From a bacterium (lineage in GTDB: Bacteria; Patescibacteriota; Microgenomatia; UBA1400; PJMF01), in contig JAFRKQ010000009.1 in NCBI GenBank assembly GCA_017431625.1, positions 11,874 to 75,873 on the forward strand: a DNA stretch of 64,000 nucleotides, read 5' to 3'. Each line of letters begins with the position of its first letter. Position 1 is the stretch's first letter. The position numbers and the translations under genes are program-made. Shown piece after piece: positions 16,701 through 45,490 of the stretch. The notes under the pieces are model-generated. The model worked only from the letters and a program-made list of their open reading frames with translations, made no database searches and was not told the origin of the DNA.

Positions 16701-16746
16701 GATATGATCATATCATGATAAGTTCATTTTGTCAAATAATTGTGGC

Positions 16747-16876
16747 TGAATTCTACTCCGAAACGCGACACCGAGGGGATAATTTAGGCAAATACCTGGG
16801 ATAGCTCACATTATTACAATATAATGATTACTAAATTAGCAATTTGATAATCATTATCAATTTGATACAATCTCAC
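16747..16876. repeat. 130-bp direct repeat, copy 2, containing a Fur box
   Basis: See copy 1; identical over about 130 bp. Confidence 0.9.
16844..16860. promoter_or_regulatory. Fur-box palindrome TTGATAATCATTATCAA inside repeat copy 2
   Basis: Perfect 7-1-7 Fur consensus. Confidence 0.5.
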
Positions 16877-19937: not shown

Positions 19938-20012
19938 GCCTCAGTGACCTAACTCCCAAGTTCCCACCCAAAACGCAACACTCCGCACCAGTACAAGATA
20001 ACTTAACACAAT

Positions 20013-20124: not shown

Positions 20125-21090
20125 CTATTCTTGTCCTAAAAGCTCCACTACCAAGGCCACCATCAAGTCTTTTTCCCGTGGGTTGGATTGAGCGATCAGG
20201 AGTGTTAGTGAGGTGAGAGCGATATTATTGATAATTGGTAGACCATCGCGATACAACATTCCATAAAAATCCAAAAAATAGATCAAAAGTGTGGCCGCAA
20301 TGCGCTTGTTGCCATCAGAAAATGGGTGGTTTTTGATGAGCAGATAAAAAAGATTGGCGGCTTTTTCTTCCAGCGTTGGATAGACATCTTGTCCACCAAA
20401 AGACTGATAAACGTTGCCCAAAATTGACTCCAGACCGCGTTCGCGCTCACTCCCAAAAAGATCGCTGATTTGTTTATATTTAAGACCAGCAATGACACTA
20501 AGACAACTCTTATAGGTAATCATTTTGTCACTCGTGCGCACCCCCTTACCAGAAAAGCGTTGCTCATCATAGCTTTCTAGGGTATCCAAAGCCCGATAAT
20601 AATGATTGATTAGCTGTAAAATTTGCTTGGCATTCTCGCCTTCAATCTCCTGGTCACGATTGGCAATTTCCAGCAATTTAACCGTTTTTTCTAGCATCTC
20701 CAGACGCTTTTGATTGATGGCGACACCTTTGAGCATATAATCTTTGAGCACTTTATTGGCCCAAATGCGAAATTGTGTGCCCTGTGGCGACTTGACGCGA
20801 TAGCCAACAGAAATAATGACATCAAGGTTATAATACTCGACACTATATGTCTTGTTATCAGCGGCAGTTGTTGCAAAAAATGCAACAACTGAGTTTTTAT
20901 TCAACTCGCCTTCGTCAAAAATATTATTAATATGTCGAGAAATAGTGGTTTTATCACGGCCAAAAAGCTGAACCATTTGCGCCTGCGACAGCCACACGGT
21001 TTCGTCCTGAAGATTAACTTCCAGCTTTACCTTTTGATTTTCAAAAATAATGATTTCGTTTTTGTCCTGCATAGGCTTATTATAACACAC
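20125..21090 (-). CDS. Fic/Doc family protein with N-terminal RhuM-like domain
   Basis: C-terminal Fic motif HPFSDGNKRIAATLL (HPFx[DE]GNxR); N-terminus IIIFENQKVKLEVNLQDETVWLSQAQMVQLFGRDKTTISRHINNIF is RhuM-like; start possibly the ATG at 21072. Confidence 0.8.
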   Translation of the reverse strand: MCYNKPMQDKNEIIIFENQKVKLEVNLQDETVWLSQAQMVQLFGRDKTTISRHINNIFDEGELNKNSVVAFFATTAADNKTYSVEYYNLDVIISVGYRVKSPQGTQFRIWANKVLKDYMLKGVAINQKRLEMLEKTVKLLEIANRDQEIEGENAKQILQLINHYYRALDTLESYDEQRFSGKGVRTSDKMITYKSCLSVIAGLKYKQISDLFGSERERGLESILGNVYQSFGGQDVYPTLEEKAANLFYLLIKNHPFSDGNKRIAATLLIYFLDFYGMLYRDGLPIINNIALTSLTLLIAQSNPREKDLMVALVVELLGQE

Positions 21091-21288
21091 ATTTTAGATA
21101 AATTACGAGCCAAAACTACAAGCTACCAAACACAATACCATTTGTCAAATTTTTATCACGTTTGTTATTGTTTTTACCCGGGGAGACCACGAAACACGAT
21201 AGCAAAAAAAACTAAAGACGACAATGTTGTGACACCAGGCTATCACCAAAAGCGAGGTCAAACTTAGCTTCAAGCGGTTCTTTTAAAA

Positions 21289-21378
21289 TGTATACAAAAT
21301 TTGTACAATTTCACTTTTTTGTTAAACGCGTGTTAAACGTGTATATCTGGTTTTTAGTGACAAAAATTTGGTTTTTGT
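21289..21378 (+). repeat. cassette-boundary repeat R2 (in a divergent promoter region)
   Basis: tatacaaaatttgtacaatttcacttttttgttaaacgcgtgttaaacgtgtatatctggtttttagtgacaaaaatttggtttttg. Confidence 0.9.
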
Positions 21379-21447
21379 AAATTGATAGTTACCAGAAATT
21401 AATTATTGCCTCTCTTTTGAAAACTTTCGGGGTCATAATCATAATTT

Positions 21448-21708
21448 TTGTGTTATAATATAGCGGCAATGATAAAATTGTCAGGAACGCAGTCTATGAG
21501 TTATGACGCTTTAGTACAAGACATTAGCACTCTTCCCAAGGAGTATTTTCCCGAAGTGGCTCATTTTCTTGAGCTGCTTAAATTTAAGGTGATGGTACAA
21601 ACACACCAACAACCATCTTCATTGCGTCAACTGGGTGGCTTTGAAGGCCAAATAAAAATAGCTGATGATTTTGATGACACCCCAACAGGTTTTGAGGACT
21701 ATTTATAA
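21448..21708 (+). CDS. VapB-like antitoxin (DUF2281-like) of a type II TA pair
   Basis: Small ORF ending ...GGFEGQIKIADDFDDTPTGFEDYL whose stop overlaps the vapC start (TAATG); true start probably an internal ATG (MSYDALVQDISTLP...). Confidence 0.55.
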   Translation: MCYNIAAMIKLSGTQSMSYDALVQDISTLPKEYFPEVAHFLELLKFKVMVQTHQQPSSLRQLGGFEGQIKIADDFDDTPTGFEDYL

Positions 21709-22082
21709 TGTATATTATTGACACACATGTGCTATTGTGGTTACTGTCAGATCCAGACAAACTCTCACGCACAGCCAAACAAGTTTTGCAACGTGAACGA
21801 CTTTTTGTTAGTATAGCTTCATTATGGGAGATTGCGATCAAACAAAGTAATGGTAAATTAGAGTTGCCACTGACGCCCCAACAGTTGTCTAACGTTTGTC
21901 TGAGTCGCGATATTCAACTCAAGCAAATCCTACCAAACCATTTATGCCAGCTGCGTGAGCTACCAAAAATTCACAGTGATCCTTTTGACCGTTTGATCAT
22001 TTGTCAAGCCATAGCAGATAAAATCTCAATTGTCACTCATGACACCAAAATTGCTCGTTATAATATTGCGACAGTTTGGTAA
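21708..22082 (+). CDS. vapC: PIN-domain toxin VapC
   Basis: MYIIDTHVLLWLL...SIASLWEIAIK...DPFDRLIICQA...VTHD carries the PIN acidic residues. Confidence 0.85.
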   Translation: MYIIDTHVLLWLLSDPDKLSRTAKQVLQRERLFVSIASLWEIAIKQSNGKLELPLTPQQLSNVCLSRDIQLKQILPNHLCQLRELPKIHSDPFDRLIICQAIADKISIVTHDTKIARYNIATVW

Positions 22083-22095
22083 ACTATTACTTAAT

Positions 22096-22186
22096 GTAGA
22101 CAAAATTTGTACAATTTCACTTTTTTGTTAAACGCGTATTAAACGTGTATATCTGGTTTTTGGTGACAAAAATGGTGTTTTTGTTT
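22096..22186 (+). repeat. cassette-boundary repeat R3
   Basis: gtagacaaaatttgtacaatttcacttttttgttaaacgcgtattaaacgtgtatatctggtttttggtgacaaaaatggtgtttttg. Confidence 0.9.
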
Positions 22187-22198
22187 TTTTGATTGCTT

Positions 22199-22678
22199 TT
22201 ATTTTTCAAATTTAACTGTGATGTTTTCATTCCCTATATGCTCTAAATTGTCAAGATGACCTATTTTGGTATAACTATATGATGTAGCAAATGATTTATA
22301 AAAGATGACTAGACAATTATCCCCATAAAGCATAACATCGCCTTTTTCAATCTGTTTGGGATTGTACGGATTTGAAGTTAACGGCTCATCCAGATAAGCA
22401 AATTTTTCATTGCCATTTAATTCATTCATTAAAAATTCTTTTGGCAACAGATTAAAAAATTCTGTTGCTGTTTGATTATTCTCAAGTTGTAGCGTGTAAG
22501 TTTCATCGCCGATGATCACCTTCACTTCTCGCATTTCTTGCTCACTTTCCTGAATACTATCCTCTATCAAGGCAACATCACTGATTGTGTCATCTGGTAA
22601 GTTTTCGTTGCTAGGTCTATTGGCAATAGCGACAATCGACACTAGACCACCAATCAAGATTAACAAGACTTTGTACAT
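22199..22678 (-). CDS. cyclophilin-like (PF04126-type) small secreted/lipo-anchored protein
   Basis: N-terminal signal/anchor MYKVLLILIGGLVSIVAIA; pattern VKVIIGDETYTLQLENNQTATEF...KGDVMLYGDNCLVIFYK resembles the cyclophilin-like fold family often paired with hydrolases; abuts the next gene with no gap. Confidence 0.45.
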   Translation of the reverse strand: MYKVLLILIGGLVSIVAIANRPSNENLPDDTISDVALIEDSIQESEQEMREVKVIIGDETYTLQLENNQTATEFFNLLPKEFLMNELNGNEKFAYLDEPLTSNPYNPKQIEKGDVMLYGDNCLVIFYKSFATSYSYTKIGHLDNLEHIGNENITVKFEK

Positions 22679-23667
22679 TAGCTCAAGTGTCTATTTAAGA
22701 ATTCTTCAATTTTAGCAAACGGAATTTTATCTTTTTGATCATACAAATCCGTGTGGGTCGCCCCTGGCACGACCACAAATTCTTTGTTGCTAGTATATTT
22801 AGAGTCTTTAATCATCTGATCGTAAGCATCCTTGCCCATATAAAATGAATGCGCTTTATCCCCATGAATAATCATCAGCGCATTTCTAATTTCATTGGCA
22901 TAATGAAATAATCTAACATTCATCATTGAAGTGTTAGTTTGGATGGCCCAACCATTATTAGAATTAAGACTTCTGTTATGATAGCCTCTGGGGGTTTTGT
23001 AGTAGGCATGATAGCCTTGCAAAAATTCTGGCGCATTTGCCGGCAAGGGATCAATCACACCACCAGCCAAAGCATAATTGCCACTGGCCAAATCTTTATT
23101 TCTTTGATTATTCAAGCTAACTCTTTGGCTATATCGAGCTTCCTCATTATCTTGTTCGTCAAAATACCCATTGCCCGCCACTCTCGACATGTCGTACATC
23201 GTGGAGACAATCGTAGCCTTGATTCTGGTATCAATGCAAGCGGTTTGTAGTGCCATACCACCCCAACCACAGATGCCAATAATGCCGATTTTTTCGCTAT
23301 CGACATTGTCAAGGCTGATTAAATAATCTACGGCCGCTTGAAAGTCCTCCACATTGATGTCGAAAGCTGTCATATAGCGAGGATGACCGCCTGACTCTCC
23401 TGTAAATGAAGGATCGAAAGCAATACTCAAAAAGCCTCTTTCAGCCATCTCTTGAGCGTACAAGCCGCTCGCTTGTTCTTTGACTGCGCCATAAGGGCCC
23501 GCCACCGCTAACGCTGGTAATTTACCGGTATAATCTTTGGGCGTGTACATGTCGGCCACCAAGGTGATGCCAAAATGATTGGTAAAAGTGACTTTTTGAT
23601 GATTAACTTTATCACTTTGCGGAAAAACTTTGTCCCATTCCTGAGTTATTTTTAATTCTTCTTGCAT
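22678..23667 (-). CDS. alpha/beta hydrolase, dienelactone-hydrolase-like (Cys nucleophile)
   Basis: IGIIGICGWGG nucleophile elbow (GxCxGG), downstream Asp/His region ...MIIHGDKAHSFYMG. Confidence 0.7.
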   Translation of the reverse strand: MQEELKITQEWDKVFPQSDKVNHQKVTFTNHFGITLVADMYTPKDYTGKLPALAVAGPYGAVKEQASGLYAQEMAERGFLSIAFDPSFTGESGGHPRYMTAFDINVEDFQAAVDYLISLDNVDSEKIGIIGICGWGGMALQTACIDTRIKATIVSTMYDMSRVAGNGYFDEQDNEEARYSQRVSLNNQRNKDLASGNYALAGGVIDPLPANAPEFLQGYHAYYKTPRGYHNRSLNSNNGWAIQTNTSMMNVRLFHYANEIRNALMIIHGDKAHSFYMGKDAYDQMIKDSKYTSNKEFVVVPGATHTDLYDQKDKIPFAKIEEFLNRHLS

Positions 23668-23873
23668 GATCTATCCTTTCCCCAACTTTGCGGCTATTAT
23701 ACCATGGAAAAAGAAGCTTTTGGCAATTTGTTGCGTTGAGATTGGCCTATCTACTATTAATTCCCACGTTTTCAAAGATTTTGTGACTGTAAACACAGAC
23801 TTCATTTGCCCAATCGAAAACAATTGATGATAGCCATGGAAGTAGTCATACTATTGACACGGTTCAATTGTGT

Positions 23874-23965
23874 GTAGACAAAATTTGATCAATTTCACTT
23901 TTTTGTTAAACGCGTGTTAAACGTACACATCTGGTTTTTAGTGACAAAAATGGTGTTTTTGTTTT
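23874..23965 (+). repeat. cassette-boundary repeat R4
   Basis: gtagacaaaatttgatcaatttcacttttttgttaaacgcgtgttaaacgtacacatctggtttttagtgacaaaaatggtgtttttg. Confidence 0.9.
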
Positions 23966-24046
23966 TTATGGTAGCAGTTAATTTTACCAAAACAATTGTC
24001 CTGATCAAATATTTTTGTCACAATGTAAATTCAAAGTTGTGGTATA

Positions 24047-24586
24047 ATGCACGTCATGAAGTTCTATCTCGTACGCCATGGCCAAACTGATTACAATGTC
24101 AAACACATCGTTCAAGGTTGGTCTGATGTACCACTCAATAGTGTCGGCAAGGAGCAAGCGGTTCAAGTAGCATTGATGATGTGTGATTATCATGTGGATG
24201 CTGTTTTTGCTTCGGATCTGTTGCGTGCCAAACAAACTGCCGAACCAATAGCTGCTAAGTTGGGATTACCAGTGACTTACAGTTGGTTGTTGCGGGAACG
24301 TTATTTTGGCGCTCTCGAGGGCACTGATAGTGACCAGATAGATTGGGATAAAGTCAATGCTAATGGACTGGAAATTCAAGCCCAAGGTGTCGAAAGCCGG
24401 GCTCACTTAGACGATCGCATTCGTCAATTTGTCAGCGACCTTCAACTTTGGCCCAATCCACCGCACTCCATTGTGGTGATCACTCATGGCGGTACTATGA
24501 ATCACTTTTGTAGCTGTTTTCTGCCAAAACATGAGTTTTGTCATTTTAACAATACTCAGATAGTGGAATTGACGCTTGAGGATTAA
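24047..24586 (+). CDS. histidine phosphatase family (phosphoglycerate-mutase-like) protein
   Basis: FYLVRHGQTDYN...G.SDVPL..VGKEQA is the RHG catalytic motif; likely start MKFYLVRHG at 24056; promoter TTGTCA...TGgTATAAT at 24015-24044. Confidence 0.8.
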   Translation: MHVMKFYLVRHGQTDYNVKHIVQGWSDVPLNSVGKEQAVQVALMMCDYHVDAVFASDLLRAKQTAEPIAAKLGLPVTYSWLLRERYFGALEGTDSDQIDWDKVNANGLEIQAQGVESRAHLDDRIRQFVSDLQLWPNPPHSIVVITHGGTMNHFCSCFLPKHEFCHFNNTQIVELTLED

Positions 24587-24595
24587 CTGTCAACC

Positions 24596-24672
24596 AAAAC
24601 ACGATATCATTTACCGATTCTTTATCGCGTTTGCTATCACTTCTGCCTGGGGAGACCACAAACGCGATACTA
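24596..24672 (+). repeat. partial copy (E-b) of the larger composite repeat element
   Basis: aaaacacgatatcatttaccgattctttatcgcgtttgctatcacttctgcctggggagaccacaaacgcgata matches the 5' half of 29237-29396. Confidence 0.75.
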
Positions 24673-24815
24673 AATAACTAAAGGCTATAGTGTTTTGGCC
24701 GACGCGAAAAAGTTTTTCAATTAGACTTGAAAAGTTGGTGATGATAACGCAATCGCGCTGACTGCTACCGACATATGTACTGTTAAAATCGTGATATTAT
24801 GATATAATCGCTCAT

Positions 24816-26534
24816 ATGACTCAGAATAAAGCGAGAGTAAAAAGACACTGGCACGTACTTGTGTTAGCTTTAATTATCGCGCTGGCAAGTTTTTTCCGAC
24901 TCTGGCATTTAAACCAGCTACCTTATGCCCTTCACGATGACGAAGTCTGGAATGCCTATCTGGGCAAATTTATTATTTTAAATCATCAAGATGTCAACGG
25001 TCAGAAGTGGCCGTGGCTTTATTCAGATAAATTTGGCGATTATCCGCCAGTACTACCCATGTATTTATCTGGTCTCACCGCGATTTTTTTTGGCGACAAT
25101 GCCCTAGCTGTGCGTTTGCCGATTGCCATTTGTGGCATTATTAATGTAATCACCGTTTATTTTTTGGCGAAGTTTTTATTTGCTGATACTCGAGCGGCAC
25201 TGGTAGCCACTTTGTTTATGGCTATTTGCCCTTGGCACGTTATTCTCTCGCGCGCTACAGCAGAAAATATCGTTGCTACCAGTGTATTTTCACTAGGTAT
25301 ATTAGTGCTCTTTACAGCTTTGGAAAAGCAAAAAGTTTCTGGCAAACTATTGGTGTCATTATTATTGCTCCTGACTACTTATTTGCTTTATCCGAGTTAT
25401 CGGGTGTTAATACCTTTATTTTTATTGCCGACATTTTTACTTACACCGCCAAAGTCATTAATTCGTCAATGTATGGTGACGGCTACTATTGTTGCTTTTG
25501 GCTTGACATTCATAATCGGCCACACTGATTGGGGCAAAGGACGCTATGATCAAATTTCTATCTGGACACATGGTGGTGAAATTGCCGGCAAGTCGCTTAA
25601 TTATTCACTTGCCCTCGGTCCAGGTCGAGTTTTGGAAGCGAGAATTTTTAATAATAAATATGTTTTAGTAGCAAGAGAATTTTTGCGACAGTATAGCACC
25701 TATTTTTCTGCGCAGTTTCTTGCTGGCGAAGGGTTTATGGAGCCGAAGCGTTATCATCTGATTGAGCATGGAGTCGCTTATTGGTCATTGATTTTGGTAA
25801 TAATTCTTTTTGTGTTGGTGCAAATTGTCAGACCCTACACACTACCACAATTGTCAGCAACTTTCAAACGTCAAAGGTGGCGGTATTTTTTGCTATTGTT
25901 GTGGTTTTTATTGATAGCGCCATTGCCAGCCGCACTGACACTCGAGGAAGTTCCCAATATTCATCGGACTCTAGGAATGGTTGTGGTTTGGTCTTTACTT
26001 TTTGGTTGGTTAACATGTCGGCTATTGGCAGCCAAGCTCACAAGACACTGGTTGATGATAGCCGCTGTTGGTCTCGGACTAGTATTTTGTAGCGAGGCGA
26101 TTTATTTTTGGCACACTTACACCACATTGGACTATGAGAGTAATTTTATTTATCGCGATGATGCCAAAAAACTTATCAGCGAGTGGTTACTGGCCCAGCA
26201 TGACGAGAAAATACCAATTCTCATTCCTCAAGCTGGCAATTTAATTCTTCATTACTTGTTTTTTGGTGGCAATTACGACCCATCGTTGGTGGGCCAATTT
26301 GAAGATGGCTTGAGCATTGAGGTCTTCCATCATTTACATCCAGTTTTTGATCCTTGCAAGCAAGCCCAAAAAATTCTCAAATTACAACCAAACGAAAAAA
26401 TATTGGTCGTGAGTGAGCAAGACAATTGTGAAGGTTTGGTTTTGCGTGACAAAATTGTCAGACACAACTTGACCGATGCTTATTATATTTGGGAAGCAAG
26501 TCGCGAGGGAATATTGCCAGTCAACGAACTTTAG
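24816..26534 (+). CDS. GT-C fold glycosyltransferase (ArnT/PMT family, GT39/GT83-like) polytopic membrane protein
   Basis: More than 10 predicted TM helices; conserved DE motif in the first extracytoplasmic loop (LHDDEVWNAYLGKF). Confidence 0.65.
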   Translation: MTQNKARVKRHWHVLVLALIIALASFFRLWHLNQLPYALHDDEVWNAYLGKFIILNHQDVNGQKWPWLYSDKFGDYPPVLPMYLSGLTAIFFGDNALAVRLPIAICGIINVITVYFLAKFLFADTRAALVATLFMAICPWHVILSRATAENIVATSVFSLGILVLFTALEKQKVSGKLLVSLLLLLTTYLLYPSYRVLIPLFLLPTFLLTPPKSLIRQCMVTATIVAFGLTFIIGHTDWGKGRYDQISIWTHGGEIAGKSLNYSLALGPGRVLEARIFNNKYVLVAREFLRQYSTYFSAQFLAGEGFMEPKRYHLIEHGVAYWSLILVIILFVLVQIVRPYTLPQLSATFKRQRWRYFLLLLWFLLIAPLPAALTLEEVPNIHRTLGMVVVWSLLFGWLTCRLLAAKLTRHWLMIAAVGLGLVFCSEAIYFWHTYTTLDYESNFIYRDDAKKLISEWLLAQHDEKIPILIPQAGNLILHYLFFGGNYDPSLVGQFEDGLSIEVFHHLHPVFDPCKQAQKILKLQPNEKILVVSEQDNCEGLVLRDKIVRHNLTDAYYIWEASREGILPVNEL

Positions 26535-26537
26535 GAC

Positions 26538-26664
26538 ATCGTGTTTACCACTCTGCCTGAAATACCTGCGAAACGCGATATGAAATGGCCAAAGACTATC
26601 ATGTTTGGGCTAGCGTGGGCCGCCAAAAGTGAGGATAAATTAATTTCAACGTGTTTTTGATAAT
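26538..26664 (+). repeat. partial copy (E-c) of the larger composite repeat element, contiguous with R5
   Basis: ctctgcctgaaatacctgcgaaacgcgatatgaaatggccaaagactatcatgtttgggctagcgtgggccgccaaaagtgaggataaat...tttgataat nearly identical to the 3' half of 29237-29396. Confidence 0.8.
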
Positions 26665-26756
26665 ATAGACAAAATTTGATCAATTTCACTTTTTTGTTAA
26701 ACGCATGTTAAACGTATACATCTGGTTTTTAGTGACAGAAATGGGGTTTTTGTTTT
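26665..26756 (+). repeat. cassette-boundary repeat R5
   Basis: atagacaaaatttgatcaatttcacttttttgttaaacgcatgttaaacgtatacatctggtttttagtgacagaaatggggtttttg. Confidence 0.9.
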
Positions 26757-26840
26757 TTATGGTAACGACTAATTTTACCACAACAATTGGCCTGATTAAA
26801 AATTTTTGTCAGTTGACACATAAAGCAGTGTCGCAATATT

Positions 26841-26871
26841 CTTTGCCCGCGCTCAATCGAGCGCGGGCAAA
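26841..26871. promoter_or_regulatory. perfect 14-bp-arm palindrome ctttgcccgcgctc-aatc-gagcgcgggcaaag in the conserved 3' module of the Fibrobacter-paralogous-domain gene family
   Basis: Recurs at 31541-31571 and 63129-63159, always about 40 bp 3' of a family member's stop; no U-tract, so not a classic terminator. Confidence 0.6.
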
Positions 26872-26909
26872 GACGAAACGAAATCAGGAAAAGTATTAAG
26901 ACTACAAAA

Positions 26910-28865
26910 CTAAAGTTTGGTAATACGAGCAAAGCCATGACCACTTTTAGCACAATCTATTTGGGGATCACTGCTAACGCAGGTATTACTAATTGTATAT
27001 GTTGATTCTTGTTCGGAACTGTCGCAAGCGTAGCAGCTCATATGTTTAGCCGACAAATTCACATTAGCAATATAGCCAGAACCGCCGCCACCGCCATAAT
27101 CAGTACTATTTGTGCTTGCACTACCACCATAATAGCCACCACCACCAGCTCCGGCATTTTTATTATTTCCGCCCTTACCGAATGAACCTGCGTAGCTGCC
27201 AGTAGCGCCACCGGCTGTTTGGCTACCTCCAAAACCAGTATTGCTCGATGATGTGCCACCAATGTAGCCACCACCACTTCCAGCGATATCAGCGCTATCA
27301 TTGGCTGCACCGCCACCCGCAACAATTAAAATGCGATTATCAGTAGCGTGGCTAGACAGTGTTGACAAAACACCCGAATCTAATGCGATGTGCGTCGCAC
27401 CTCCGCCGCCAAACTGTCCAGAACCTCCGCCATTATAGCCACCAGTGCTACCGTTTGCCTTGCCACCAACATTAATATGCAAAACAGTCCCTTGGGTTAA
27501 ATTAATTTTCCCAACTGCGTAGCCGCCATAGCCAGCTTGACCGATACCAGCGCCAACTACTCCAGAAGAAGCATCGGTGTAGCCTTCAGCACCCCAAACT
27601 TCCAGTAAATATATACCGTTGCTAGCAATAGTTAAAGTTTGTTCGCTGCCAGTATAATTATACTCATAAATATTATTGATGTTCACACAAGTGTCAGTGG
27701 AAGGGTTGTATTGATTGCTTCCGGTGCAAGTAGCGATACATTTACCATAAGTACTTGAATACTCATAATTTGTTTTACAGTCACAGGTCATCTTATTAGC
27801 ATTAAATGTGCCATTGTCACCACAAACGGCGATACAGCTGTGATATTGTTCTGACCACTCGTAGCCGTTGGCACAATATTCATGAACGCAACGTACACTC
27901 GCCCCATTGGCTTTATTGAGCTTAGTAATACCAAAACGCACATTGTTATGATAAATACTATTGCTAATAGTTTCACTAACATTAGTAGCTGTCCAATAGT
28001 AATTATATATTGGTTCTTGAGTCAAACCGCCGGTAACTCCTGCTACCCCAGCAGGAATCACTGCATGCCACGAACCACTTTTGGTCCAAAACGTCAAGTC
28101 ACTAGTGATTACACTTAAAGAAACATAATCATCTTTGCTGGGCAAATACCAACCATCAGGACAGATCCCTTTTCGTGGAATACTCGGTTGATAATTCTGT
28201 CCATAATGTGCATTATTATCCTGAACCGCTGCTTGATAACTGTAAAAATTACCTTGTAATGTCCCAGTACCTTCCAAACCATCATCATCGACTGTATCTT
28301 TAGCGGCACGACAATCGCCGTATAAACCATTGGCAATTCTATTACTTACACTGATTGCATTGGCCGCAGTTGTAATACACGTTTCATCCGCATTATATCC
28401 ATAGCCACAATAAAATATTTTATCACAACCAGAATGATATTTAAGATTTGTTGTCATCCAGCATTTGCCATCAGCAAATTTACGGACTTCGTAAGTTTTA
28501 CCATCTCTCTCATCCATAAGACATGGACCACTAGTATAAGCAGTTCCAGTTGGTGTTGTTAAACTTTCGCAATCACCAATTGACCAACGTTGCATTGTTG
28601 TTTGTGGATTTTTACAGCCATATTCTTTAATTGTCATGCAATTATTAGTACTAGAAGCAAATAGCTGTCCGCTTGGACACAGGCTGGTAGCCAAATATTT
28701 ATTGACCCCCACCCTAACAAATTGAATACCACCCACTTGTACCACTTTGCCTACAGCAACATCTTTAAGTTTCATCGTTTGATTGCCCGAAGCAGCGAGC
28801 GTCAATTGCCTTGATAACATGAGAAAAATTGCCGCCAAAAAGACTCGCCCAAGTACTCTGGACAT
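26910..28865 (-). CDS. secreted protein with Fibrobacter-succinogenes-major-paralogous-like domain and a Gly-rich C-terminal region
   Basis: Signal peptide MSRVLGRVFLAAIFLMLSRQLTLAA; DERDGKTYEVRKFADGKCWMTTNLKY, ICPDGWYLPS and NGASVRCV match the Fibrobacter paralogous-domain (TIGR02145-like) pattern; C-terminus GGGGYYGGSASTNSTDYGGGGGSGY. Confidence 0.65.
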   Translation of the reverse strand: MSRVLGRVFLAAIFLMLSRQLTLAASGNQTMKLKDVAVGKVVQVGGIQFVRVGVNKYLATSLCPSGQLFASSTNNCMTIKEYGCKNPQTTMQRWSIGDCESLTTPTGTAYTSGPCLMDERDGKTYEVRKFADGKCWMTTNLKYHSGCDKIFYCGYGYNADETCITTAANAISVSNRIANGLYGDCRAAKDTVDDDGLEGTGTLQGNFYSYQAAVQDNNAHYGQNYQPSIPRKGICPDGWYLPSKDDYVSLSVITSDLTFWTKSGSWHAVIPAGVAGVTGGLTQEPIYNYYWTATNVSETISNSIYHNNVRFGITKLNKANGASVRCVHEYCANGYEWSEQYHSCIAVCGDNGTFNANKMTCDCKTNYEYSSTYGKCIATCTGSNQYNPSTDTCVNINNIYEYNYTGSEQTLTIASNGIYLLEVWGAEGYTDASSGVVGAGIGQAGYGGYAVGKINLTQGTVLHINVGGKANGSTGGYNGGGSGQFGGGGATHIALDSGVLSTLSSHATDNRILIVAGGGAANDSADIAGSGGGYIGGTSSSNTGFGGSQTAGGATGSYAGSFGKGGNNKNAGAGGGGYYGGSASTNSTDYGGGGGSGYIANVNLSAKHMSCYACDSSEQESTYTISNTCVSSDPQIDCAKSGHGFARITKL

Positions 28866-29236
28866 AGATGCCTTTCGTTTTTAGTTGTTACACCGGGATT
28901 TTTTGTTTGCGTATCACCTACTAAAAGTGAGCGATACAAGAACTGTCGTTCTCCCGGTGACACATCTAATACATGAACGGAAAGACGAATCGTGCACTAG
29001 AACCGGGTGAAGTATCACTCACCTTATTGCGCGCGCGATCCCAGAGATTACAAACCTCTAACCCGTTGTCCTCAGATTTTACCGATCTAGCTATTGCTTT
29101 TACCGTCTCCATCTTTAGATTTTCACTCAGACTCCTTCCGTTACTTCCTTATTAGATGTGTCAGTAGTATTATACCACATTATGCGACTTTGTGCCAAGC
29201 AGTTTTGGCTAGTATTGACCAACTAATTAAAAGTTT

Positions 29237-29396
29237 CAAAACACGATATCATTTACCGATTCTTTATCGCGTTTGCTACTACTTCTGCCTGAAATACTCA
29301 CGAAACGCGATATCAAATGACCAAAGACTATCGTGTTTGGGCTAGCGTGGGCCGCCAAAAGTGAGGATAAATAAATTTCAACCTGTTTTTGATAAT
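29237..29396 (+). repeat. most complete copy (E-d) of a ~160-bp composite element with nested inverted repeats, contiguous with R6
   Basis: Outer inverted repeat aaacacgata/tatcgtgttt and inner atcgcgttt/aaacgcgat; partial copies at 21150-21205, 24596-24672 and 26538-26664. Confidence 0.8.
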
Positions 29397-29486
29397 GTAG
29401 ACAAAATTTGTACAATTTCACTTTTTTGTTAAACGCGTGTTAAACGCGTGTTAAACGCGTATATCTGGTTTTTGGTGACAAAAATG
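29397..29486 (+). repeat. cassette-boundary repeat R6 (three GTGTTAAACGC units)
   Basis: gtagacaaaatttgtacaatttcacttttttgttaaacgcgtgttaaacgcgtgttaaacgcgtatatctggtttttggtgacaaaaatg. Confidence 0.9.
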
Positions 29487-29596
29487 TATGTGCCTCGTTC
29501 AAAGTGTTGACGTTTCGCCAACAAATCTTTATAATGCGGATCATTAGCCTCATCGGGGTTGTTCGCAGCCATCACGATCATCTGTTCTCCATCGCA

Positions 29597-29638
29597 GTAG
29601 AGAACAAACTAGCATTTGTTCCCCAGTAGACTAGAGAA
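29597..29638. repeat. 40-bp direct repeat with internal palindrome gaacaaa-ctagca-tttgttc (copy at the 3' end of the ATPase gene)
   Basis: tagagaacaaactagcatttgttccccagtagactagagaag; second copy at 31122-31170. Confidence 0.8.
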
Positions 29639-31085
29639 GTAAAAACATTGACAGCGGCAAATTGACAAACTGTCCACCCGGATCCAACTGCAGTGGCGAC
29701 TGACTAACTGTTATCCCTAGGCTATACTTGAGATTGTGCCGCGCGATGCTAGCCGCTACTTGTTCACTGCCCTTAGTACCGCTACCCACCTCCAGCACCA
29801 AGGCTTGCTGCTTTTCGTGAATATCCACGATGAAGTCAGCACAGTTTTTGGCGGCATCATAGGTGAGAGCATATGAATAACCTCGCCGTGTCAGTAATTT
29901 TGTCAGATACATCGCCATCGTATCTTCACAAACTTTGGCGCGTAGATCGGCTGGTGTCAACGTCGTCCCCAATAAATTCAGATACATCGAGCGAAATGCC
30001 GGCGCAGCAAAGAGATATTTTGACGCCTTGCGTACCTGCACTCCCACATTGCCATACGGTGCCAACCGGTAGATCAAACCAGATAATTCCAGTGTATCCA
30101 GCATTTGTTGCAAGGTGGTGGGACTTAAGCGTAAATCATGGGCAACGTTATCAACGGCTGTAACATCGTTATTGGTAAGCAGATAAATCAATCGGGCAAA
30201 CATATTCAGTGTTGCCGGACTAAAAGTCTGCAGTTGGGCAATATCTTTACCGATGATCGTATCTACGGTCTTTTTTAGCTGATCATAAGCAACTCCAAGA
30301 TTGTGTAACCGCAGCAATGAAGGCAAGGTACCTATTTCCAAATATTTGTTGATCGTAATTTCTTGAGGAAAAGTGGCATAAAAACGACGTACCGGGCCTA
30401 TACAACGCTTAAAATAGTACATCGCCTCCTTCCCAGTGTTGCTACCCAGCAAACCCTCACGCAGCTGCGCTGTCACCTCCAGTGGCAGTGTTTGGCGATG
30501 GATAAGCCGGACGTACTCACGGAAAGATAAAGGATAGATCGTTTCAAAAATCGCCCGCCGACTAATATCTGCATTCGTTTGTAACTGGAGAGCTGCCGAG
30601 CCAGTGGCAGCCACAAACACCCGTCGTGACCGATCATATAAGTTTTTGATAGTTATCGCCCAGTCTGGGTCATATTGCACTTCATCCAAAAAAATGTACA
30701 CTGGCGGCCCGTTTTGGGTAAAACTTTCGCCCAACAGAGTTTCGTAAGCGGCTAACACTTGTCCTAGCGTCACTCCCAATTGGCGTGTCACCTCGTCCAC
30801 CGATAGATAGATTTTGTGCAAAGGAGCAGCTTTGATCTGGTCGAGCAATTGCATAAGCAGTGTCGTTTTGCCCAAGCCCCGCAAGCCACTGATCACCAAC
30901 CACCTCCAGGCAGCATTACCGGCTTCAAAAGCATCCAAGTGCTGTGCCAGGCGGCCATAGACATCGCGGCGTGGCAAGGGTGCGCCAGCATCGTCAGTTG
31001 TGTAATTAACACATCTAGCCGTCAGTTCCATCAGTTGACGTTGTAAATAAGCAGTGAGTTGATTTTGTGTCTCTTGTGTGATCAT
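29631..31085 (-). CDS. AAA+ ATPase (AAA_14/DUF4143-type ATP-binding protein)
   Basis: Walker A VISGLRGLGKTTLL, Walker B IFLDEVQ; visibly more GC-rich than neighbouring cassettes. Confidence 0.75.
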   Translation of the reverse strand: MITQETQNQLTAYLQRQLMELTARCVNYTTDDAGAPLPRRDVYGRLAQHLDAFEAGNAAWRWLVISGLRGLGKTTLLMQLLDQIKAAPLHKIYLSVDEVTRQLGVTLGQVLAAYETLLGESFTQNGPPVYIFLDEVQYDPDWAITIKNLYDRSRRVFVAATGSAALQLQTNADISRRAIFETIYPLSFREYVRLIHRQTLPLEVTAQLREGLLGSNTGKEAMYYFKRCIGPVRRFYATFPQEITINKYLEIGTLPSLLRLHNLGVAYDQLKKTVDTIIGKDIAQLQTFSPATLNMFARLIYLLTNNDVTAVDNVAHDLRLSPTTLQQMLDTLELSGLIYRLAPYGNVGVQVRKASKYLFAAPAFRSMYLNLLGTTLTPADLRAKVCEDTMAMYLTKLLTRRGYSYALTYDAAKNCADFIVDIHEKQQALVLEVGSGTKGSEQVAASIARHNLKYSLGITVSQSPLQLDPGGQFVNLPLSMFLLL

Positions 31086-31121
31086 ACCTTAGATTATACC
31101 ACATTTTGTTCCCTAATACAA

Positions 31122-31170
31122 TAGAGAACAAACTAGCATTTGTTCCACAGTATACTAGAGAACAAAACCA
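31122..31170. repeat. direct repeat with palindrome gaacaaactagcatttgttc (copy upstream of the ATPase gene; extra half-sites ttgttcc/agagaacaaa nearby)
   Basis: atagagaacaaactagcatttgttccacagtatactagagaacaaaacc. Confidence 0.8.
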
Positions 31171-31363
31171 TACGATGGTGCTAATTGCCCTCTGGTGTCA
31201 CCTGCTTGTACATACGATCAGCGCGCAAAATTCTCACTAAAAATGAGACTGGAAACATAACGAGTCTCCTTATACAATAGTATTGTTACAAAGTACTAGA
31301 GAAAAGCCTAAGTTCCAACCTAAAACGCGACACTCAACACTAACATAAGATTATTTAAACAGT

Positions 31364-31455: not shown

Positions 31456-31540
31456 TTATGGCAGTGGTTAATTTTACCAAAAACAATTGGCCTCATTAAA
31501 TACTTTTGTTAGTTGACACACACGACAGTGTCGCGATATT

Positions 31541-31571
31541 CTTTGCCCGCGCTCCAAGAGCGCGGGCAAAG
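31541..31571. promoter_or_regulatory. perfect palindrome ctttgcccgcgctc-caa-gagcgcgggcaaag (second copy)
   Basis: See 26841-26871. Confidence 0.6.
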
Positions 31572-31603
31572 ATGAAACGAAATAAGAAAAGTATTAAGAC
31601 TGC

Positions 31604-31903: not shown

Positions 31904-32746
31904 TCAGGTCTTACCGTTGATCATCATCGATGTCTCTATGCTCACGCAATGAGAATTAAACCCCAATTCCATGCGGACATATTCAAGTGAAACACAGGCA
32001 GCTAAAACAATAAAGCCTTGCGCAATAAATATTCGTGTAAATTGTTGATATTCAATTATACCTGGTTTGAGGTGTTTCTTGTTCAAGTAAGAGCTGACAA
32101 AAATAAGCGCCGGCATCGCGAGCAAAACCATAAAGTGACCCACATCATCGATTAAAATATTGCATTGTACCTGTAAATATGGCAATGCCCAAACTGGCAC
32201 TAATCCAACTAGTAGCAAATAAGTAGTTGACTGCCTAATGAAGCGAAATAATTTTTGGTTATCGATCTTTGTAATTTTTCTCTTTGAATGCCATGATAGC
32301 GAAGGTATTAATTTGGAAAATAATAGGTATAAAACCAAAGGTGCAAAGGCAAGAATCAGAAAACCCATTGGGTAGTAGACACTATATGCCATCGCACAGA
32401 TAAACATAGCTGCCAACACAAAAACTATTCGTAAAATGAATTGTAAAAACGACTGTAGCCAGTTGTTAAGCTTGGTTTTGTGCGTGAGATAGGCACAAGG
32501 CCATTCTGCTACGAGAAGTCCCAAATTAATATAAGGTGTTAAAAAGATCGCCAAATACATAAGTCTGTTTATGATCAGAACAGCATTATCTAGTGGACTG
32601 ACACCAGCTAGGCGAATGCCCGATGACGACTGACTAACTCGATTAAGAGCATCGACGTGCCACTGCCAGAGTTGCAAAATAAAGAAAGCATAGATAGCAA
32701 GACTAAAACATAAAACAAATATTTTAAATTTACCATTCTTCCTCAT
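31904..32746 (-). CDS. hypothetical polytopic membrane protein
   Basis: 280-aa ORF with 6-8 hydrophobic helices; no known motif. Confidence 0.5.
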   Translation of the reverse strand: MRKNGKFKIFVLCFSLAIYAFFILQLWQWHVDALNRVSQSSSGIRLAGVSPLDNAVLIINRLMYLAIFLTPYINLGLLVAEWPCAYLTHKTKLNNWLQSFLQFILRIVFVLAAMFICAMAYSVYYPMGFLILAFAPLVLYLLFSKLIPSLSWHSKRKITKIDNQKLFRFIRQSTTYLLLVGLVPVWALPYLQVQCNILIDDVGHFMVLLAMPALIFVSSYLNKKHLKPGIIEYQQFTRIFIAQGFIVLAACVSLEYVRMELGFNSHCVSIETSMMINGKT

Positions 32747-33405: not shown

Positions 33406-34434
33406 ATGCAAAATATAGCACTTGAGCACATCCATACTAAAAATATCGTTGACGACGCCCGGCAAATCATTCAAACAGCTCGGGCTAATGCCACTAGAAG
33501 CATTGACTTTAATCGCGTGCAAATGTATTGGTGTTTAGGTCGGCGAATTTTTGAGGAAGAACAACAAGGCAAAGACCGGGCAAATTACGGCACATATCTA
33601 ATAAAAAAGCTTGCTAATTCCTTAGAAAAGGAGTACGGTAGCGGTTTTTCCGAACGGCAATTAAAATTTTGTCGTCAGTTTTACCGACTTTACCCAATTG
33701 GGAACGCAGTGCGTTCCCAATTGAATTGGACTCAATATCGTTTGTTAATCCAAATTTCTGACCCCGACAAACGTGAGTATTACGAACTCGAGTCGGTCAA
33801 CAATTCCTGGACAGCTCGAGAAACAGAAAGACAAATTAACAGTCAACTTTACGAGCGACTTCTTCTGAGCAATGATAAAGAATCTGTTTTGGCGATCGCC
33901 AGAAAAGAACGCCTTCCTGATAGACCGCAAGAGGTGATTAAAGACCCAATGGTGTTAGAGTTTTTAGGACTTGATCGTCAAGCCTCTTACTACGAAAAAG
34001 ATTTAGAAAGCGCGATTATTTCGCATCTAACTGATTTTTTGTTAGAAATGGGCAAAGGTTTTTGTTTTGTAGCGCGCCAAAAAAGAATCATCATAGAGGA
34101 TGACGAGTTTTTCATCGATTTGGTTTTGTACAATCGATTACTTAGATGTTTTGTCATTGTGGAACTCAAAACTGGAAAACTTACTCACCAAGATCTCGGA
34201 CAGCTACAAATGTATGTCAACTACTATGACCGCCAAGAAAAACTACCACAAGAAAATGACACTATTGGTGTCTTACTCGGGACAAGCAAAAATGACACCG
34301 CAGTCAAAATGACTTTACCAAAAGACAATCAAACAATTATGACTGGTGAATACCAGCTTTATTTGCCAAGTACTGAGCAATTGGCGAAAGCAGTCGAAGA
34401 AGTCAAGCAATTAGCGCAGTTCAGTTTTATGTAG
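33406..34434 (+). CDS. YhcG-like protein (DUF1016 N-terminal domain plus PD-(D/E)XK nuclease-like C-terminal domain), copy 1
   Basis: GKGFCFVARQKRIIIEDDEFFIDLVLYNRLLRCFVIVELKTGKLTHQDLGQLQMYVNYYD is the D...E.K core typical of the YhcG family; stop codon supplied by R9 (atgTAGacaaaa). Confidence 0.75.
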   Translation: MQNIALEHIHTKNIVDDARQIIQTARANATRSIDFNRVQMYWCLGRRIFEEEQQGKDRANYGTYLIKKLANSLEKEYGSGFSERQLKFCRQFYRLYPIGNAVRSQLNWTQYRLLIQISDPDKREYYELESVNNSWTARETERQINSQLYERLLLSNDKESVLAIARKERLPDRPQEVIKDPMVLEFLGLDRQASYYEKDLESAIISHLTDFLLEMGKGFCFVARQKRIIIEDDEFFIDLVLYNRLLRCFVIVELKTGKLTHQDLGQLQMYVNYYDRQEKLPQENDTIGVLLGTSKNDTAVKMTLPKDNQTIMTGEYQLYLPSTEQLAKAVEEVKQLAQFSFM

Positions 34435-34520
34435 ACAAAATTTGATCAATTTCACTTTTTTGTTAAACGCGTGTTAAACGTACACATCTGGTTTTTGGTG
34501 ACAAAAATTGGATTTTTGTA
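34431..34520 (+). repeat. cassette-boundary repeat R9
   Basis: gtagacaaaatttgatcaatttcacttttttgttaaacgcgtgttaaacgtacacatctggtttttggtgacaaaaattggatttttg. Confidence 0.9.
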
Positions 34521-34554
34521 ATTTTACAAGTAGATAATTTTGTAATATTAAGCT

Positions 34555-35307
34555 CTACCCTATCGCCCGCCTTATCTTCAATGTCTTCAAATACTCTTTT
34601 TGTTCGACTGTGAGGCGGCGACTTTCGAGGGCTTTTTGGATAGCTTTGTTGTGGGTCCAATCGTCCAAGCGTTTTTCCTTGAAAAAAGGCAGAGCGCTAT
34701 CATACTGCTCTGCCAAAGCCGTGGCAAAATACCAAGCAATCATCATCTCGATATAGTATTCTTGCGACTTGACCGTTGCCACTAACTCAACTAGAGGCAG
34801 ACTAAACATTTCATCCAAAAAATGTTGCATTAACAGCCTGATGGCAAAACGAACAGTATATGTCGCTTCAGACTGAATCCACTGGTGAATAAACGGAAGG
34901 AGGCGTTCGGATTGTTTTTTGAAAACCTTTGGCGAGAGTTGATCGCAGGTAGCCCAGTTATCAATGTGTGGCAAAAACACTTCTACTTTAGATACGCATT
35001 TGTCAAAGTCTTTTTCTAAAGAAATAATAAAAGCGTGAAGTTGATCTTCGTCAAAATACTGATGTGGCAGATTTGACAAGAAATCTCTAGCATCGTTACC
35101 TTGATACATTTTTTTAGCCAAAGTTCGCAAAGCCGGAGTCCTAACACCAATAATCCGTTCTGGCACAAGCGTGGGGATGATCTTAGCTTGCAAAGCAGCA
35201 TATTTTTCGTCGCGCAAGCGGAATAATTCGGCTCTGATTTCAGATGTAGTCATGATACTTAAACCATAATCAACTTTTATCACTTTGGGCGATACTTTTT
35301 TGCTCAA
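34555..35307 (-). CDS. DNA alkylation repair protein (AlkD/AlkC-like HEAT-repeat glycosylase family)
   Basis: GVRTPALRTLAKKMY...NWATCDQL and the overall helical-repeat pattern resemble PF08713; start possibly internal (MTTSEIRAELFRL). Confidence 0.55.
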   Translation of the reverse strand: MSKKVSPKVIKVDYGLSIMTTSEIRAELFRLRDEKYAALQAKIIPTLVPERIIGVRTPALRTLAKKMYQGNDARDFLSNLPHQYFDEDQLHAFIISLEKDFDKCVSKVEVFLPHIDNWATCDQLSPKVFKKQSERLLPFIHQWIQSEATYTVRFAIRLLMQHFLDEMFSLPLVELVATVKSQEYYIEMMIAWYFATALAEQYDSALPFFKEKRLDDWTHNKAIQKALESRRLTVEQKEYLKTLKIRRAIG

Positions 35308-35404
35308 GCAAGTGTATTATATCACCAATTTGATTAATACCCGTGCGCACGCTGCACACGTTATGAGAAAGTTTTTGGTTGAGAGTATATATGTATGTTA
35401 AGCA

Positions 35405-35761
35405 CTAAAAAGTTATCGTATTCGGAATAGAAATAATAAAATGAATAACAAAAAATAGTGCTAGAGTCAGTACTGCGAACCAAACTGTATCTTTAATTTT
35501 TTCCTTGTCAATAGTAATAGCACTAAAACTCTTTATGTTTTGATATTGTTTGTACATACAAACATATAATGGAATCATAATTATTGCCAAGACACATAAA
35601 GCAAATACAGAATTAGTAAAACTCTGCTGCACAACAGAATAATTCGGAAAACTACTTCCCAACAATCTAAACGACACTGGGATTAAGAAAACTAAAGTAA
35701 TATTAATCATGCATGCTAAAAAATAGCAATCCATTAGCAAGGCCATAAAATATAGTCGCAC
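35405..35761 (-). CDS. hypothetical small membrane protein (may be the frameshifted continuation of 35703-36086)
   Basis: Three hydrophobic helices; overlaps the upstream ORF by 59 bp in another frame. Confidence 0.3.
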   Translation of the reverse strand: MRLYFMALLMDCYFLACMINITLVFLIPVSFRLLGSSFPNYSVVQQSFTNSVFALCVLAIIMIPLYVCMYKQYQNIKSFSAITIDKEKIKDTVWFAVLTLALFFVIHFIISIPNTITF

Positions 35762-36086
35762 CAGACTTTGTTTTGGTAGTTGTTCTTCGCGTCATTAAAC
35801 TAGCGATTGATATTAACAAAATGCCTAGAACATTACATCCCATACCGAGTAAAGGCATATAATGTCTTATTATATTATTTTCCAATACAGTACTAACTAT
35901 ACTTGCGCATGAAGGCACTAAAGACTCTTCAAGGAATTGATCTATTTGAGGACAGTTTCTATATGTCTGCAAAAGCACATATGGTATAACATAACCATCA
36001 ACCAAATGAAATACTAGCAACAATAAACCGATTATTAGTGCTAGTCTTATTGCCAGCATAACTCCTAATTTATTGTCATTGCGCAT
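35703..36086 (-). CDS. hypothetical membrane protein (start MRNDNKLG at 36086 preferred over the track's 36230)
   Basis: RBS AAGGGAAC and TATAAT promoter just upstream of 36086. Confidence 0.35.
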   Translation of the reverse strand: MRNDNKLGVMLAIRLALIIGLLLLVFHLVDGYVIPYVLLQTYRNCPQIDQFLEESLVPSCASIVSTVLENNIIRHYMPLLGMGCNVLGILLISIASLMTRRTTTKTKSGATIFYGLANGLLFFSMHD

Positions 36087-36501
36087 TGTTGCGTTCCCTT
36101 TATTTTCAATTCTCAGTCTACAGCTGTTGGGGTAAACTCTGACAGGAAGTCCACAACCCAACTGCTTGAGGTTAATTATAGCATGATTGGGGAGTTTTTG
36201 AGGAAGAGTATTTAAAGCTACTATGGGCAAATATTTGAGTTAAGTAAAAAAACGTGGGGTTTTACATTATTTTTGGCGGTATATACGTAAAATTGGCATT
36301 ATTTTGCACTTTTTGAGTGCTAAATCTCGATATTTACCAGTGTTTAAACAAAAAAGTGCAGTTTTATCTGTGTGAGATTTTATTTAACTCACCTTTATTG
36401 AACAATTTTTGTGTTCAAGTGTGAGACATGTTAGTTTACCCTACGAAAGAAATATCGTGAATCTGCATGCAAATTTGACACAATTATAGTCATGATATAT
36501 A

Positions 36502-39990: not shown

Positions 39991-40177
39991 TGAATGACAA
40001 CTTTTTCAAGATCTTTCAAGATTAAGTTCATAGTCAAGCTTGGCGCCAAGTTCTCAATTTAATCAACAGCCAATTGTGTTTTTAATTACTGAGTATACAC
40101 ACGTTATAGCCACGTCGTAGCCACTCATCGCGATTTACAATTATTTTTGGTAATTTCTCCACAAGTTGTGGAGAAAA

Positions 40178-40320
40178 CTGGCGGGAGATCCGAGCCCAGT
40201 TACTAGAGGTTGATTATAACATGATTAAGAAGTTTTTACAGCGGGAAAGTGTGTGGAAGTAATTATCAAATGATTAATTACTATAGGTATTGACAAAAAA
40301 TTTAATTTGTGATAAAGTGG
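40178..40320 (+). repeat. upstream module copy 1 (3' 80 bp of the conserved small ORF plus TTGACA promoter), identical over 70 bp to copy 2
   Basis: tggcgggagatccgagcccagttactagaggttgattataacatgattaagaagtttttacagcgggaaa shared with 42116-42186. Confidence 0.8.
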
Positions 40321-40324
40321 ATAT

Positions 40325-45420: not shown

Positions 45421-45490
45421 AGTTCTGGCACTCGTTGCACTAATTCGAAAAATGGGGTTGAGTGTTCTTTTTGTTGATGACATGTTTTCC

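Follow-up and report, generated by a model that had tools for sequence, protein, structure and literature searches.

The 64-kb stretch analysed here (the window, from contig JAFRKQ010000009.1) belongs to the chromosome of an uncultured rumen Patescibacteria and holds an island of at least 12 cassettes, divided from one another by a single oriented, non-palindromic repeat, R. Homologues of its EpmA assign the organism to Patescibacteria, and its genome recurs in assemblies of rumen metagenomes and in an NCBI MAG contig of 86.7 kb. The cassette genes are unrelated, accessory and found in both orientations. They encode a transglutaminase-like protein, Fic/RhuM, a DUF2281-PIN toxin-antitoxin pair, a cyclophilin-like protein with an alpha/beta hydrolase, a histidine phosphatase, a PMT_2 glycosyltransferase, a glycine-rich/Fib_succ_major protein, an AAA_14 ATPase, YhcG nucleases (PDDEXK), a DNA alkylation repair enzyme, CAT and several ORFans. 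Many have their own extended −10 promoter, TGnTATAAT, only 7–9 nt before the ATG (for example at 21072-21085, 24040-24047, 24797-24816 and 31085-31100), which implies leaderless mRNAs. At one junction, R (29386-29500, + strand) is preceded by a linker of ~42 nt (29344-29385, +) and, outside the linker, by a full imperfect palindrome of ~105 nt (29237-29343, +), delimited by its box pattern, its fold and a profile search. This palindrome, which we call H, is the subject of the present analysis.

With their tiny genomes, Patescibacteria (the candidate phyla radiation, CPR) acquire accessory genes in ways that are little understood; of all parts of the junction, H is the likeliest to shed light on the mechanism. 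A preliminary description of the locus had taken it for a composite resembling a miniature inverted-repeat transposable element (MITE), mobile or RNA-encoding, from which the shorter repeat derives or with which it travels. The observation itself is partly confirmed by our data and that interpretation partly supported. The reading that we tentatively favour, at a probability of roughly 0.4, is that H is the distal, optional, box-bearing left arm of a non-integron cassette junction and not an independent element.

Anatomy and copies of the palindrome

H is built of four 10-bp boxes (AAACRCGATA) that make up two inverted 36-nt units. The outer inverted repeat is formed by U1 (AAACACGATA, 29239-29248) and, in reverse, U4 (TATCGTGTTT, 29329-29338), and the inner one by U2 (TATCGCGTTT, 29265-29274, reverse) and U3 (AAACGCGATA, 29303-29312), with 16 nt separating U1 from U2, 28 nt (the apical spacer) U2 from U3 and another 16 nt U3 from U4. 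U1-N16-U2 and U3-N16-U4 are reverse complements of each other, which makes H an inverted doublet of one 36-nt unit. The pattern AAACRCGATA-N16-TATCRYGTTT, with up to three mismatches, gave 12 matches at six sites, each matched on both strands, where shuffled sequences would be expected to give 0.08. The arms (36–45 nt, 72–76% complementary, with stem ends CAAAACAC...GTGTTTGG) form terminal inverted repeats on a short non-coding element. Folded as single-stranded DNA, the copy at 29237 (copy A) yielded z = −3.8 on the + strand and −4.0 on the − strand, with none of 200 shuffles as good, and the stretch around a second copy, B (24588-24708), yielded z = −5.0 and −5.4, again equalled by no shuffle; R folds no better than shuffled sequence (z about −0.5). 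The nested inverted repeats and long imperfect hairpin of the preliminary description are therefore real, U1/U4 being the outer and U2/U3 the inner pair, and with z between −3.8 and −5.4 the fold is far more stable than those of shuffles on both strands. Of the 160-bp element that it had placed upstream of R, the palindrome is present, but the hairpin part spans only ~105 nt and the rest is the ~42-nt non-palindromic linker.

A profile built from the full H copies (nhmmer) matched four times in the window, always on the + strand and always within 21126-29343 (E-values of 8e-34 for copy B, 8e-33 for A, 2e-29 for C and 2e-12 for D), and found no further credible copy in the remaining ~55 kb with its ~40 intergenic regions. 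Copy B (24595-24702, +) is full-length and the best paired, with arms 76% complementary, and begins 8 nt past the stop codon of the histidine phosphatase gene, its extended stem beginning 2 nt past. Copy C (21126-21236, +) is full-length and degenerate, having lost most of its 3′ outer arm; a variant linker (21237-21279) and R (21280-21385) come next. Copy D (26538-26611, +), directly after the PMT_2 stop codon, is truncated to its 3′ two-thirds (part of U2, the loop, U3 and U4) and leads into a homologous linker (26612-26654) and R (26655-26765). Two stretches previously listed as partial copies, 21150-21205 and 24596-24672, are thus parts of the full-length copies C and B, and the one at 26538, listed as a 3′ part contiguous with R, is indeed truncated. 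Three of the four window copies (A, C and D) are joined to R via homologous linkers, and two more copies, in other strains, have the same side (left), orientation and fixed distance relative to R, bearing out the earlier view that the palindrome travels with the cassette repeat. All four H copies and all 11 R copies in the window share one orientation (+). A candidate decayed linker and R downstream of copy B was rejected, its alignment score being no better than those of shuffles. The copies at 21126, 24595 and 26538 are reproduced by independent metagenome assemblies; copy A is known from the window alone, and exact look-ups of its two flanking genes found no second strain.

Single forward boxes of the AAACGCGAYA type also occur to the left of R copies, at places where no pairing partner exists. 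One (AAACGCGACA) is at 16761, in the left arm (16745-16876, +) of the leftmost complete R, and another at 13015, in a left-arm-only R copy (12999-13130, +); two more are at 19971-19980 (+; AAACGCAACA), 72 nt left of the R core at 20043, and at 31323-31332 (+; AAACGCGACA), 71 nt left of the core at 31394. Such shorter remnants, each a single U3-type box, agree with the modular decay noted in the preliminary description. The box pattern occurs 17 times in the window as against 3.2 expected, and 16 of these occurrences lie inside junction modules. A forward U3-type box stands 121–128 nt left of the R core at 13015, 16761, 21192, 26571 and 29303 and in strains L029 and L037, and together with the two at 71–72 nt this gives a box at a set distance in nine junction alleles overall. 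Across the 12 junctions, the R core is retained in all, a U3-type box in seven and U1-U2 in three. Moreover, the heptamer AAACGCG is common to the H boxes and to the iterons of R: it is found 16 times on the + strand within junctions versus seven times, counting both strands, in the remaining ~60 kb, and the last iteron with its 3′ flank (AAACGCGTATATC) differs from U3 with its flank (AAACGCGATATC) by one base. The linker of copy A carries the conserved motif CCAAAAGTGAGG; in the window the linker motif CCAAARGYGAG is confined to the three R-fused H junctions, and it recurs in the junction alleles of strains L023, L029 and L037.

Among four full H copies we counted no compensatory change in either nested (U1:U4, U2:U3; 86% of cells paired) or local pairing (U1:U2, U3:U4; 81%), every variable pair being broken, and the RNAalifold covariation term was positive, that is, unfavourable; copy B keeps its forward boxes U1 and U3 unchanged from strain to strain. 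Rfam 15 returned no match to H at the gathering score or at E ≤ 1, and three tRNAs only for the window. A 15-codon open reading frame (ORF) present in copies A and D was rejected as a conserved small ORF, being absent or altered in B, C and L023. With no Rfam match, no compensatory change and no conserved ORF, the suggestion of an RNA-encoding element finds no support. That of a MITE in the strict sense fares no better. Target-site duplications are lacking, the flanks of A (AAAGTTT/GGCTAGC), B (GTCAAC/GCCGAC) and C (AGCTAC/ACACCAG) showing no direct repeat; the copies have one orientation; the window has no transposase; and no filled versus empty site for H alone was seen among five strains, in which B, C and D are present wherever covered and the differences at H sites are module replacements, not clean insertions. 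In practice, H should be annotated neither as a MITE nor as a small RNA.

The junction repeat and cassette turnover

In the R copy at 29386-29500, the left half ends ...CAATTTCAC, with CAC at 29419-29421, after which come a T-run (29422-29427) and G|TTAAAC; three 11-bp iterons (TGTTAAACGCG) occupy 29427-29459, two being the usual number, and are followed by TGGTTTTTGGTGACAAAAATG. Ten same-orientation copies of R lie between 16.8 and 34.5 kb, and an eleventh, diverged copy (46312-46392, +) closes the island on the right, with tRNA-His on one side and epmA on the other. Among the R copies, left-half and right-half identities are uncorrelated (r = −0.01). The copy at 33111 consists of the right half only and the site at 13130 of the left half only, with the same break, ...TCAC-T(4–6)-GTTAAAC. 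Promoter-like matches in R are weak and are not conserved among its copies, leaving it with no evident promoter. Exact-pattern scans for R found no match in the GTDB representative genomes, IMG/VR or the JGI metagenomes, collections that do not include the source genome. A scan of IMG/VR with the half-H unit gave five matches, all by chance (in coding regions or a terminator), a three-box H scan of the JGI metagenomes gave none, and neither did BLASTN of the H-linker-R composite against phage and plasmid collections. The epmA loci of the nearest genomes (≤63% identity) have no R, H, adjoining tRNA-His or comparable array.

Strain comparison shows R-mediated gain and loss of cassettes, and R is a live cassette boundary; in independent rumen assemblies, cassettes are inserted or deleted exactly at R. 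One such locus is that of an 1188-aa ORFan (13134-16700) beside the array, whose 3.7-kb cassette lies between the two copies of an exact 132-nt direct repeat (12999-13130 and 16745-16876). The homology stops at the R core (CTCAC|TTTTT), and the duplicated arm starts 16 nt before its box. Strain L038 (3500-3900) lacks the ORFan and one copy of the repeat and retains a single arm and R, and the locus looks like a recent cassette insertion or deletion. A related JGI strain, L029, differs in cassette order (L029:6990-7400 and 8840-9100 versus window 22093-23710 and 34432-36200): its hydrolase/cyclophilin cassette is joined to the DNA-alkylation-repair cassette via a single R with an H half-unit, without the six cassette intervals that separate the two in the window. 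This L029 junction contains a remnant of the PMT_2 3′ end, the H half-unit and a linker of the copy C type, and the window has at the equivalent place a YhcG 3′ remnant (23789-23871, 80% identical to 34346-34434); the left flanks of R thus hold fossils of earlier cassettes.

The junction modules diverge far faster than the genes that flank them. Between the window and strain L037, coding sequences are 96.6–98.9% identical and the third positions of PMT_2 92.7%, versus 85–87% for R copies, 88% for the truncated copy D and 53% for its linker; the full copy B is 93.5% identical, with U1 and U3 intact, and the spacer after it 78%. Against the ~99% identical strain L023, 41 of 50 differences fall within 150 nt (26537-26687, covering copy D, the linker and the left of R), a case of allele replacement at the junction by an allele absent from the window. 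Copy D lacks U4 in strains L023 and L037, and in the half-unit of L029 the two boxes have come to match each other again. At the island's right end, an 811-bp module of CAT and tRNA-His (45483-46292) ends ~20 nt from the last R copy and is 97% nucleotide-identical in another species (JAZQJV01; L031:9853-10659, L032 and L035) whose EpmA is only 63% identical. Such identity across species in a different context indicates that this tRNA-His may be cassette-borne and not core.

Searches for a protein that might act at these sites were negative. Pfam, NCBIfam and PHROGs revealed no integrase, transposase or Rep domain in the window; the window ORFs scanned include no intI and no Y1 or RAYT (REP-associated tyrosine transposase, REP standing for repetitive extragenic palindrome), and Pfam, NCBIfam, PHROGs and PDB searches of the unknown window proteins yielded no candidate recombinase. 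The 1188-aa ORFan had no homologue in 5.8 billion clusters; it carries several helix-turn-helix-like segments. The right arm of R, TTTTGTTAAAC, resembles the XerD arm of E. coli dif at 9 of 11 positions, with no matching XerC-side dyad at 6–8 bp spacing, and is a lead only.

Several other repeats were noted in and around the island. A lone inverted R core (CACTTTTTTGTTTAAAC, − strand, 36333-36366) lies upstream of a 420-aa ORFan and could be a secondary site or a chance match. In a MEGAHIT contig (L026:1-66), 66 nt of unrelated G+C-rich sequence abut the left edge of R (window 23875) exactly, which could be an assembly chimera or an alternative junction. Palindromes reminiscent of a Fur box (AATTTGATAATCATTATCAA) occur at 8226-8278, 13075-13111 and 16821-16857, positions within the leftmost R's left arm and upstream of the region with the GH3 gene. 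The R-free part of the island is filled by another repeat family, S (up to 231 nt, with a TGcTATAAT-type promoter inside; 40092-40322, 42031-42261, 43611-43841 and 36156-36201), with other copies at L029 2684, 5400 and 8973 and L031 15276 and 17811; it thus recurs in a related strain as well as in a second species of Patescibacteria and could be a further junction or promoter module. On either side of the AAA_14/DUF4143 ATPase gene stand 61-nt direct repeats (29583-29643 and 31107-31167, 84% identical), each holding TGTTCTC...GAGAACA hairpins; these could represent an operator or a small repeat family of their own. Three identical hairpins with a perfect 15-bp stem (TCTTTGCCCGCGCTC...GAGCGCGGGCAAAGA; 26840-26873, 31540-31572 and 63128-63160) lie at the 3′ ends of minus-strand genes, two of them glycine-rich (ALK_LTK_GRD) paralogues and the third a 280-aa gene (31904-32746), and resemble canonical bidirectional terminators, unlike H.

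A proposed distal arm of the junction and rival readings

We propose that H forms the outermost part of a left arm of R, ~130–250 bp long, with R separating self-expressed cassettes in a hypervariable island. Exchange would take place within R at TCAC-T(4–6)-GTTAAAC, and cassettes would be gained and lost by recombination of R with R, either homologous, through these ~100-nt conserved repeats, or catalysed by a recombinase whose gene lies outside the window. Within H, the 10-bp boxes, which repeat the heptamer of the iterons, would be the functional units. The anatomy of H, its linkage to R, the shared heptamer, the cassette turnover at R between strains and the lack of structural covariation are observed; beyond these, we infer that the boxes are probably extra sites for the DNA-binding protein that would recognise the iterons, be it the recombinase or an architectural partner, with a possible part in recombination comparable to that of attP arm-type sites or of DR1/DR2 of attI1. 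The full palindrome would then be an inverted duplication of the 36-nt unit (box-N16-box) and, as junctions work without it, would decay from the outside in.

Arguing for a distal arm are the fusion of three of the four copies to R, the common orientation of H and R, the crowding of box and heptamer into junctions, the set distance from box to core, the behaviour of R as a cassette boundary in its half-copies and in strains L038 and L029, the persistence of boxes that have nothing to pair with, the changes that break pairs but spare the forward boxes of copy B, and the rapid divergence of the junction modules. Several points weigh on the other side. No recognisable R adjoins copy B, and the 64 kb hold no recombinase or other candidate binding protein. 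The palindrome is missing at eight of the 12 junctions and any box at five, so the palindrome cannot be essential, and a dimeric binding site would not usually have its paired boxes 26 bp apart from centre to centre. Common ancestry could by itself account for the constant distance between box and core, plain homologous recombination without a specific protein accounts just as well for the 132-nt duplication, and the related sequences amount to about nine in all, from one species and a handful of strains.

A more far-reaching version, which we regard as doubtful, would make H-linker-R the full attachment site of a non-integron cassette-acquisition system in Patescibacteria: a double-stranded junction of ~250 bp in which a T-run/GTTAAAC crossover stands between 11-bp iterons and AAACRCGATA arm boxes. 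The recombinase would be encoded elsewhere, possibly a host Xer-type enzyme or one of an unrecognised family, and promoter-bearing cassettes would be integrated and excised in either orientation and exchanged between rumen CPR species. As to mechanism, the clustered breakpoints favour site-specific exchange, but the 132-nt identity and the precedent of the PeSL promoter/stem-loop motifs of phages (PMC2839356, PMC4122927) mean that homology alone could suffice. If the boxes are protein sites, the recognition sequence of the recombination machinery has been identified; if they are not, the array would represent in a bacterium what PeSL shuffling by homologous recombination is in phages.

Two other explanations of H are still standing as serious rivals. 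It may be a selfish palindrome of the REPIN (REP doublet) or MITE kind, spread by an outside transposase (RAYT or another enzyme of the HUH or insertion sequence (IS) type), inserted within or close to the junction repeat and now a decaying hitch-hiker without host function. Its architecture is that of a REP doublet, two inverted 36-nt palindromic units with a hairpin at z −4 to −5; single units exist and are the most decayed, as described for REP singlets versus REPINs (PMC3116915), changes break pairs without compensating, and copy B occurs alone, without R. We nevertheless think such an origin rather unlikely, because target-site duplications, H-only presence/absence polymorphism among five strains and a Y1/RAYT or other transposase in the window are all lacking, because the copies lie in one orientation within 8.3 kb, with none in the other ~55 kb, and because the heptamer shared with the iterons of R and the fixed distance from the core are not predicted by it, nor by simple hitch-hiking. 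The alternative that H works as RNA, a bidirectional stem-loop of the PeSL type that insulates cassettes from read-through as a terminator, attenuator or stabiliser, draws on its position: copies B and D start 3–8 nt after + strand stop codons, and copies A and C are situated between R and the extended −10 promoters that serve − strand genes, a position from which they could block incoming transcription. Being palindromic, H would act in both directions, insulation would be useful where each cassette gene has its own, mostly leaderless-type promoter, and PeSL motifs provide a precedent (PMC2839356, PMC4122927). However, the stems are A+T-rich with large internal loops and no U-tract after them, whereas canonical G+C-rich terminators are present elsewhere in the genome (12703-12725, 26840-26873 and 31540-31572); H is missing at most junctions; and several pairs are broken, none is compensated and no Rfam family matches, all of which makes an insulating role improbable.

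That H is the folded, single-stranded attC-type site of an unusual chromosomal integron is very unlikely indeed, and this reading is largely refuted by the tests that define such sites. The same-orientation repeats between cassettes and the typical cargo (PIN toxin-antitoxin pair, Fic, CAT, nucleases) would suit an integron, GTTAAAC at the exchange point of R fits GTTRRRY, and H does fold as single-stranded DNA. But the stem ends of H have no RYYYAAC...GTTRRRY pair, GTTAAAC of R has no inverted partner, H is found at just four of 12 junctions and the ever-present R does not fold (z −0.5). The cassettes, moreover, are large, lie in both directions and have their own promoters, and no intI or integrase domain is encoded in the window. 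Two further identities were rejected. A rolling-circle origin was considered because of a likeness to pMV158 in the iterons and in the TACTAC that the loop of copy A contains, but no other copy has this loop motif and a Rep gene is lacking; and a diversity-generating retroelement would be at odds with the non-coding repeats, the lack of a reverse transcriptase and the lack of adenine-specific variation.

Comparison with known systems

Among known systems, integron attC sites are imperfect palindromes bounded by R″ (RYYYAAC) and R′ (GTTRRRY), in arrays that have intI and attI at one end. The island shares with such arrays a same-orientation repeat between cassettes, a GTTRRRY-like core and typical cargo, but here the universal repeat, R, is non-palindromic, H is optional and lacks the R″/R′ boxes, the cassettes are large, bidirectional and promoter-bearing, and no IntI is encoded in the window. 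Accessory recombinase sites, such as lambda-like attP arm-type sites, DR1/DR2 of attI1, cer/psi accessory sequences and res subsites, offer a parallel to a distal arm. Like them, H presents ~10-bp boxes in both orientations, 60–190 bp to one side of a discrete crossover point, and its box sequence is related to repeats at the core; unlike them, its boxes are dispensable at most junctions and only putatively bound, and no recombinase candidate lies in the window.

MITEs (for example Correia, RUP and ERIC) are small, non-coding and end in long terminal inverted repeats, as does H with its ~105 nt, but H lacks target-site duplications, dispersed window copies in both orientations, insertion polymorphism and a parent IS in the window. 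With REP sequences and REPINs (PMC3116915, PMC3337134), H has in common the inverted doublet of short palindromic units, the long imperfect hairpin, the extragenic location and single units that decay faster than doublets; it differs in having four clustered copies in 64 kb, within one array, in one orientation and at a fixed distance from R, with no RAYT seen.

In T4-type phages, PeSL promoter/stem-loop motifs flank ORFan cassettes, and recombination between motifs is the proposed means of their shuffling (PMC2839356, PMC4122927). The present array differs from these in lying on a Patescibacteria chromosome and not in a phage, in having no evident promoter in R, in the character of its stem-loop (A+T-rich, ~105 nt, optional, with four repeated boxes and without terminator features) and in keeping its junction motifs in one orientation whatever the direction of the genes. 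The likeness lies in the arrangement: in both, the self-expressed ORFan cassettes of a hyperplastic region have at their borders a conserved composite motif of ~100 bp, which in some cases includes a stem-loop, and genomes differ by motif-ORFan-motif in place of a single motif, as the window does from strain L038.

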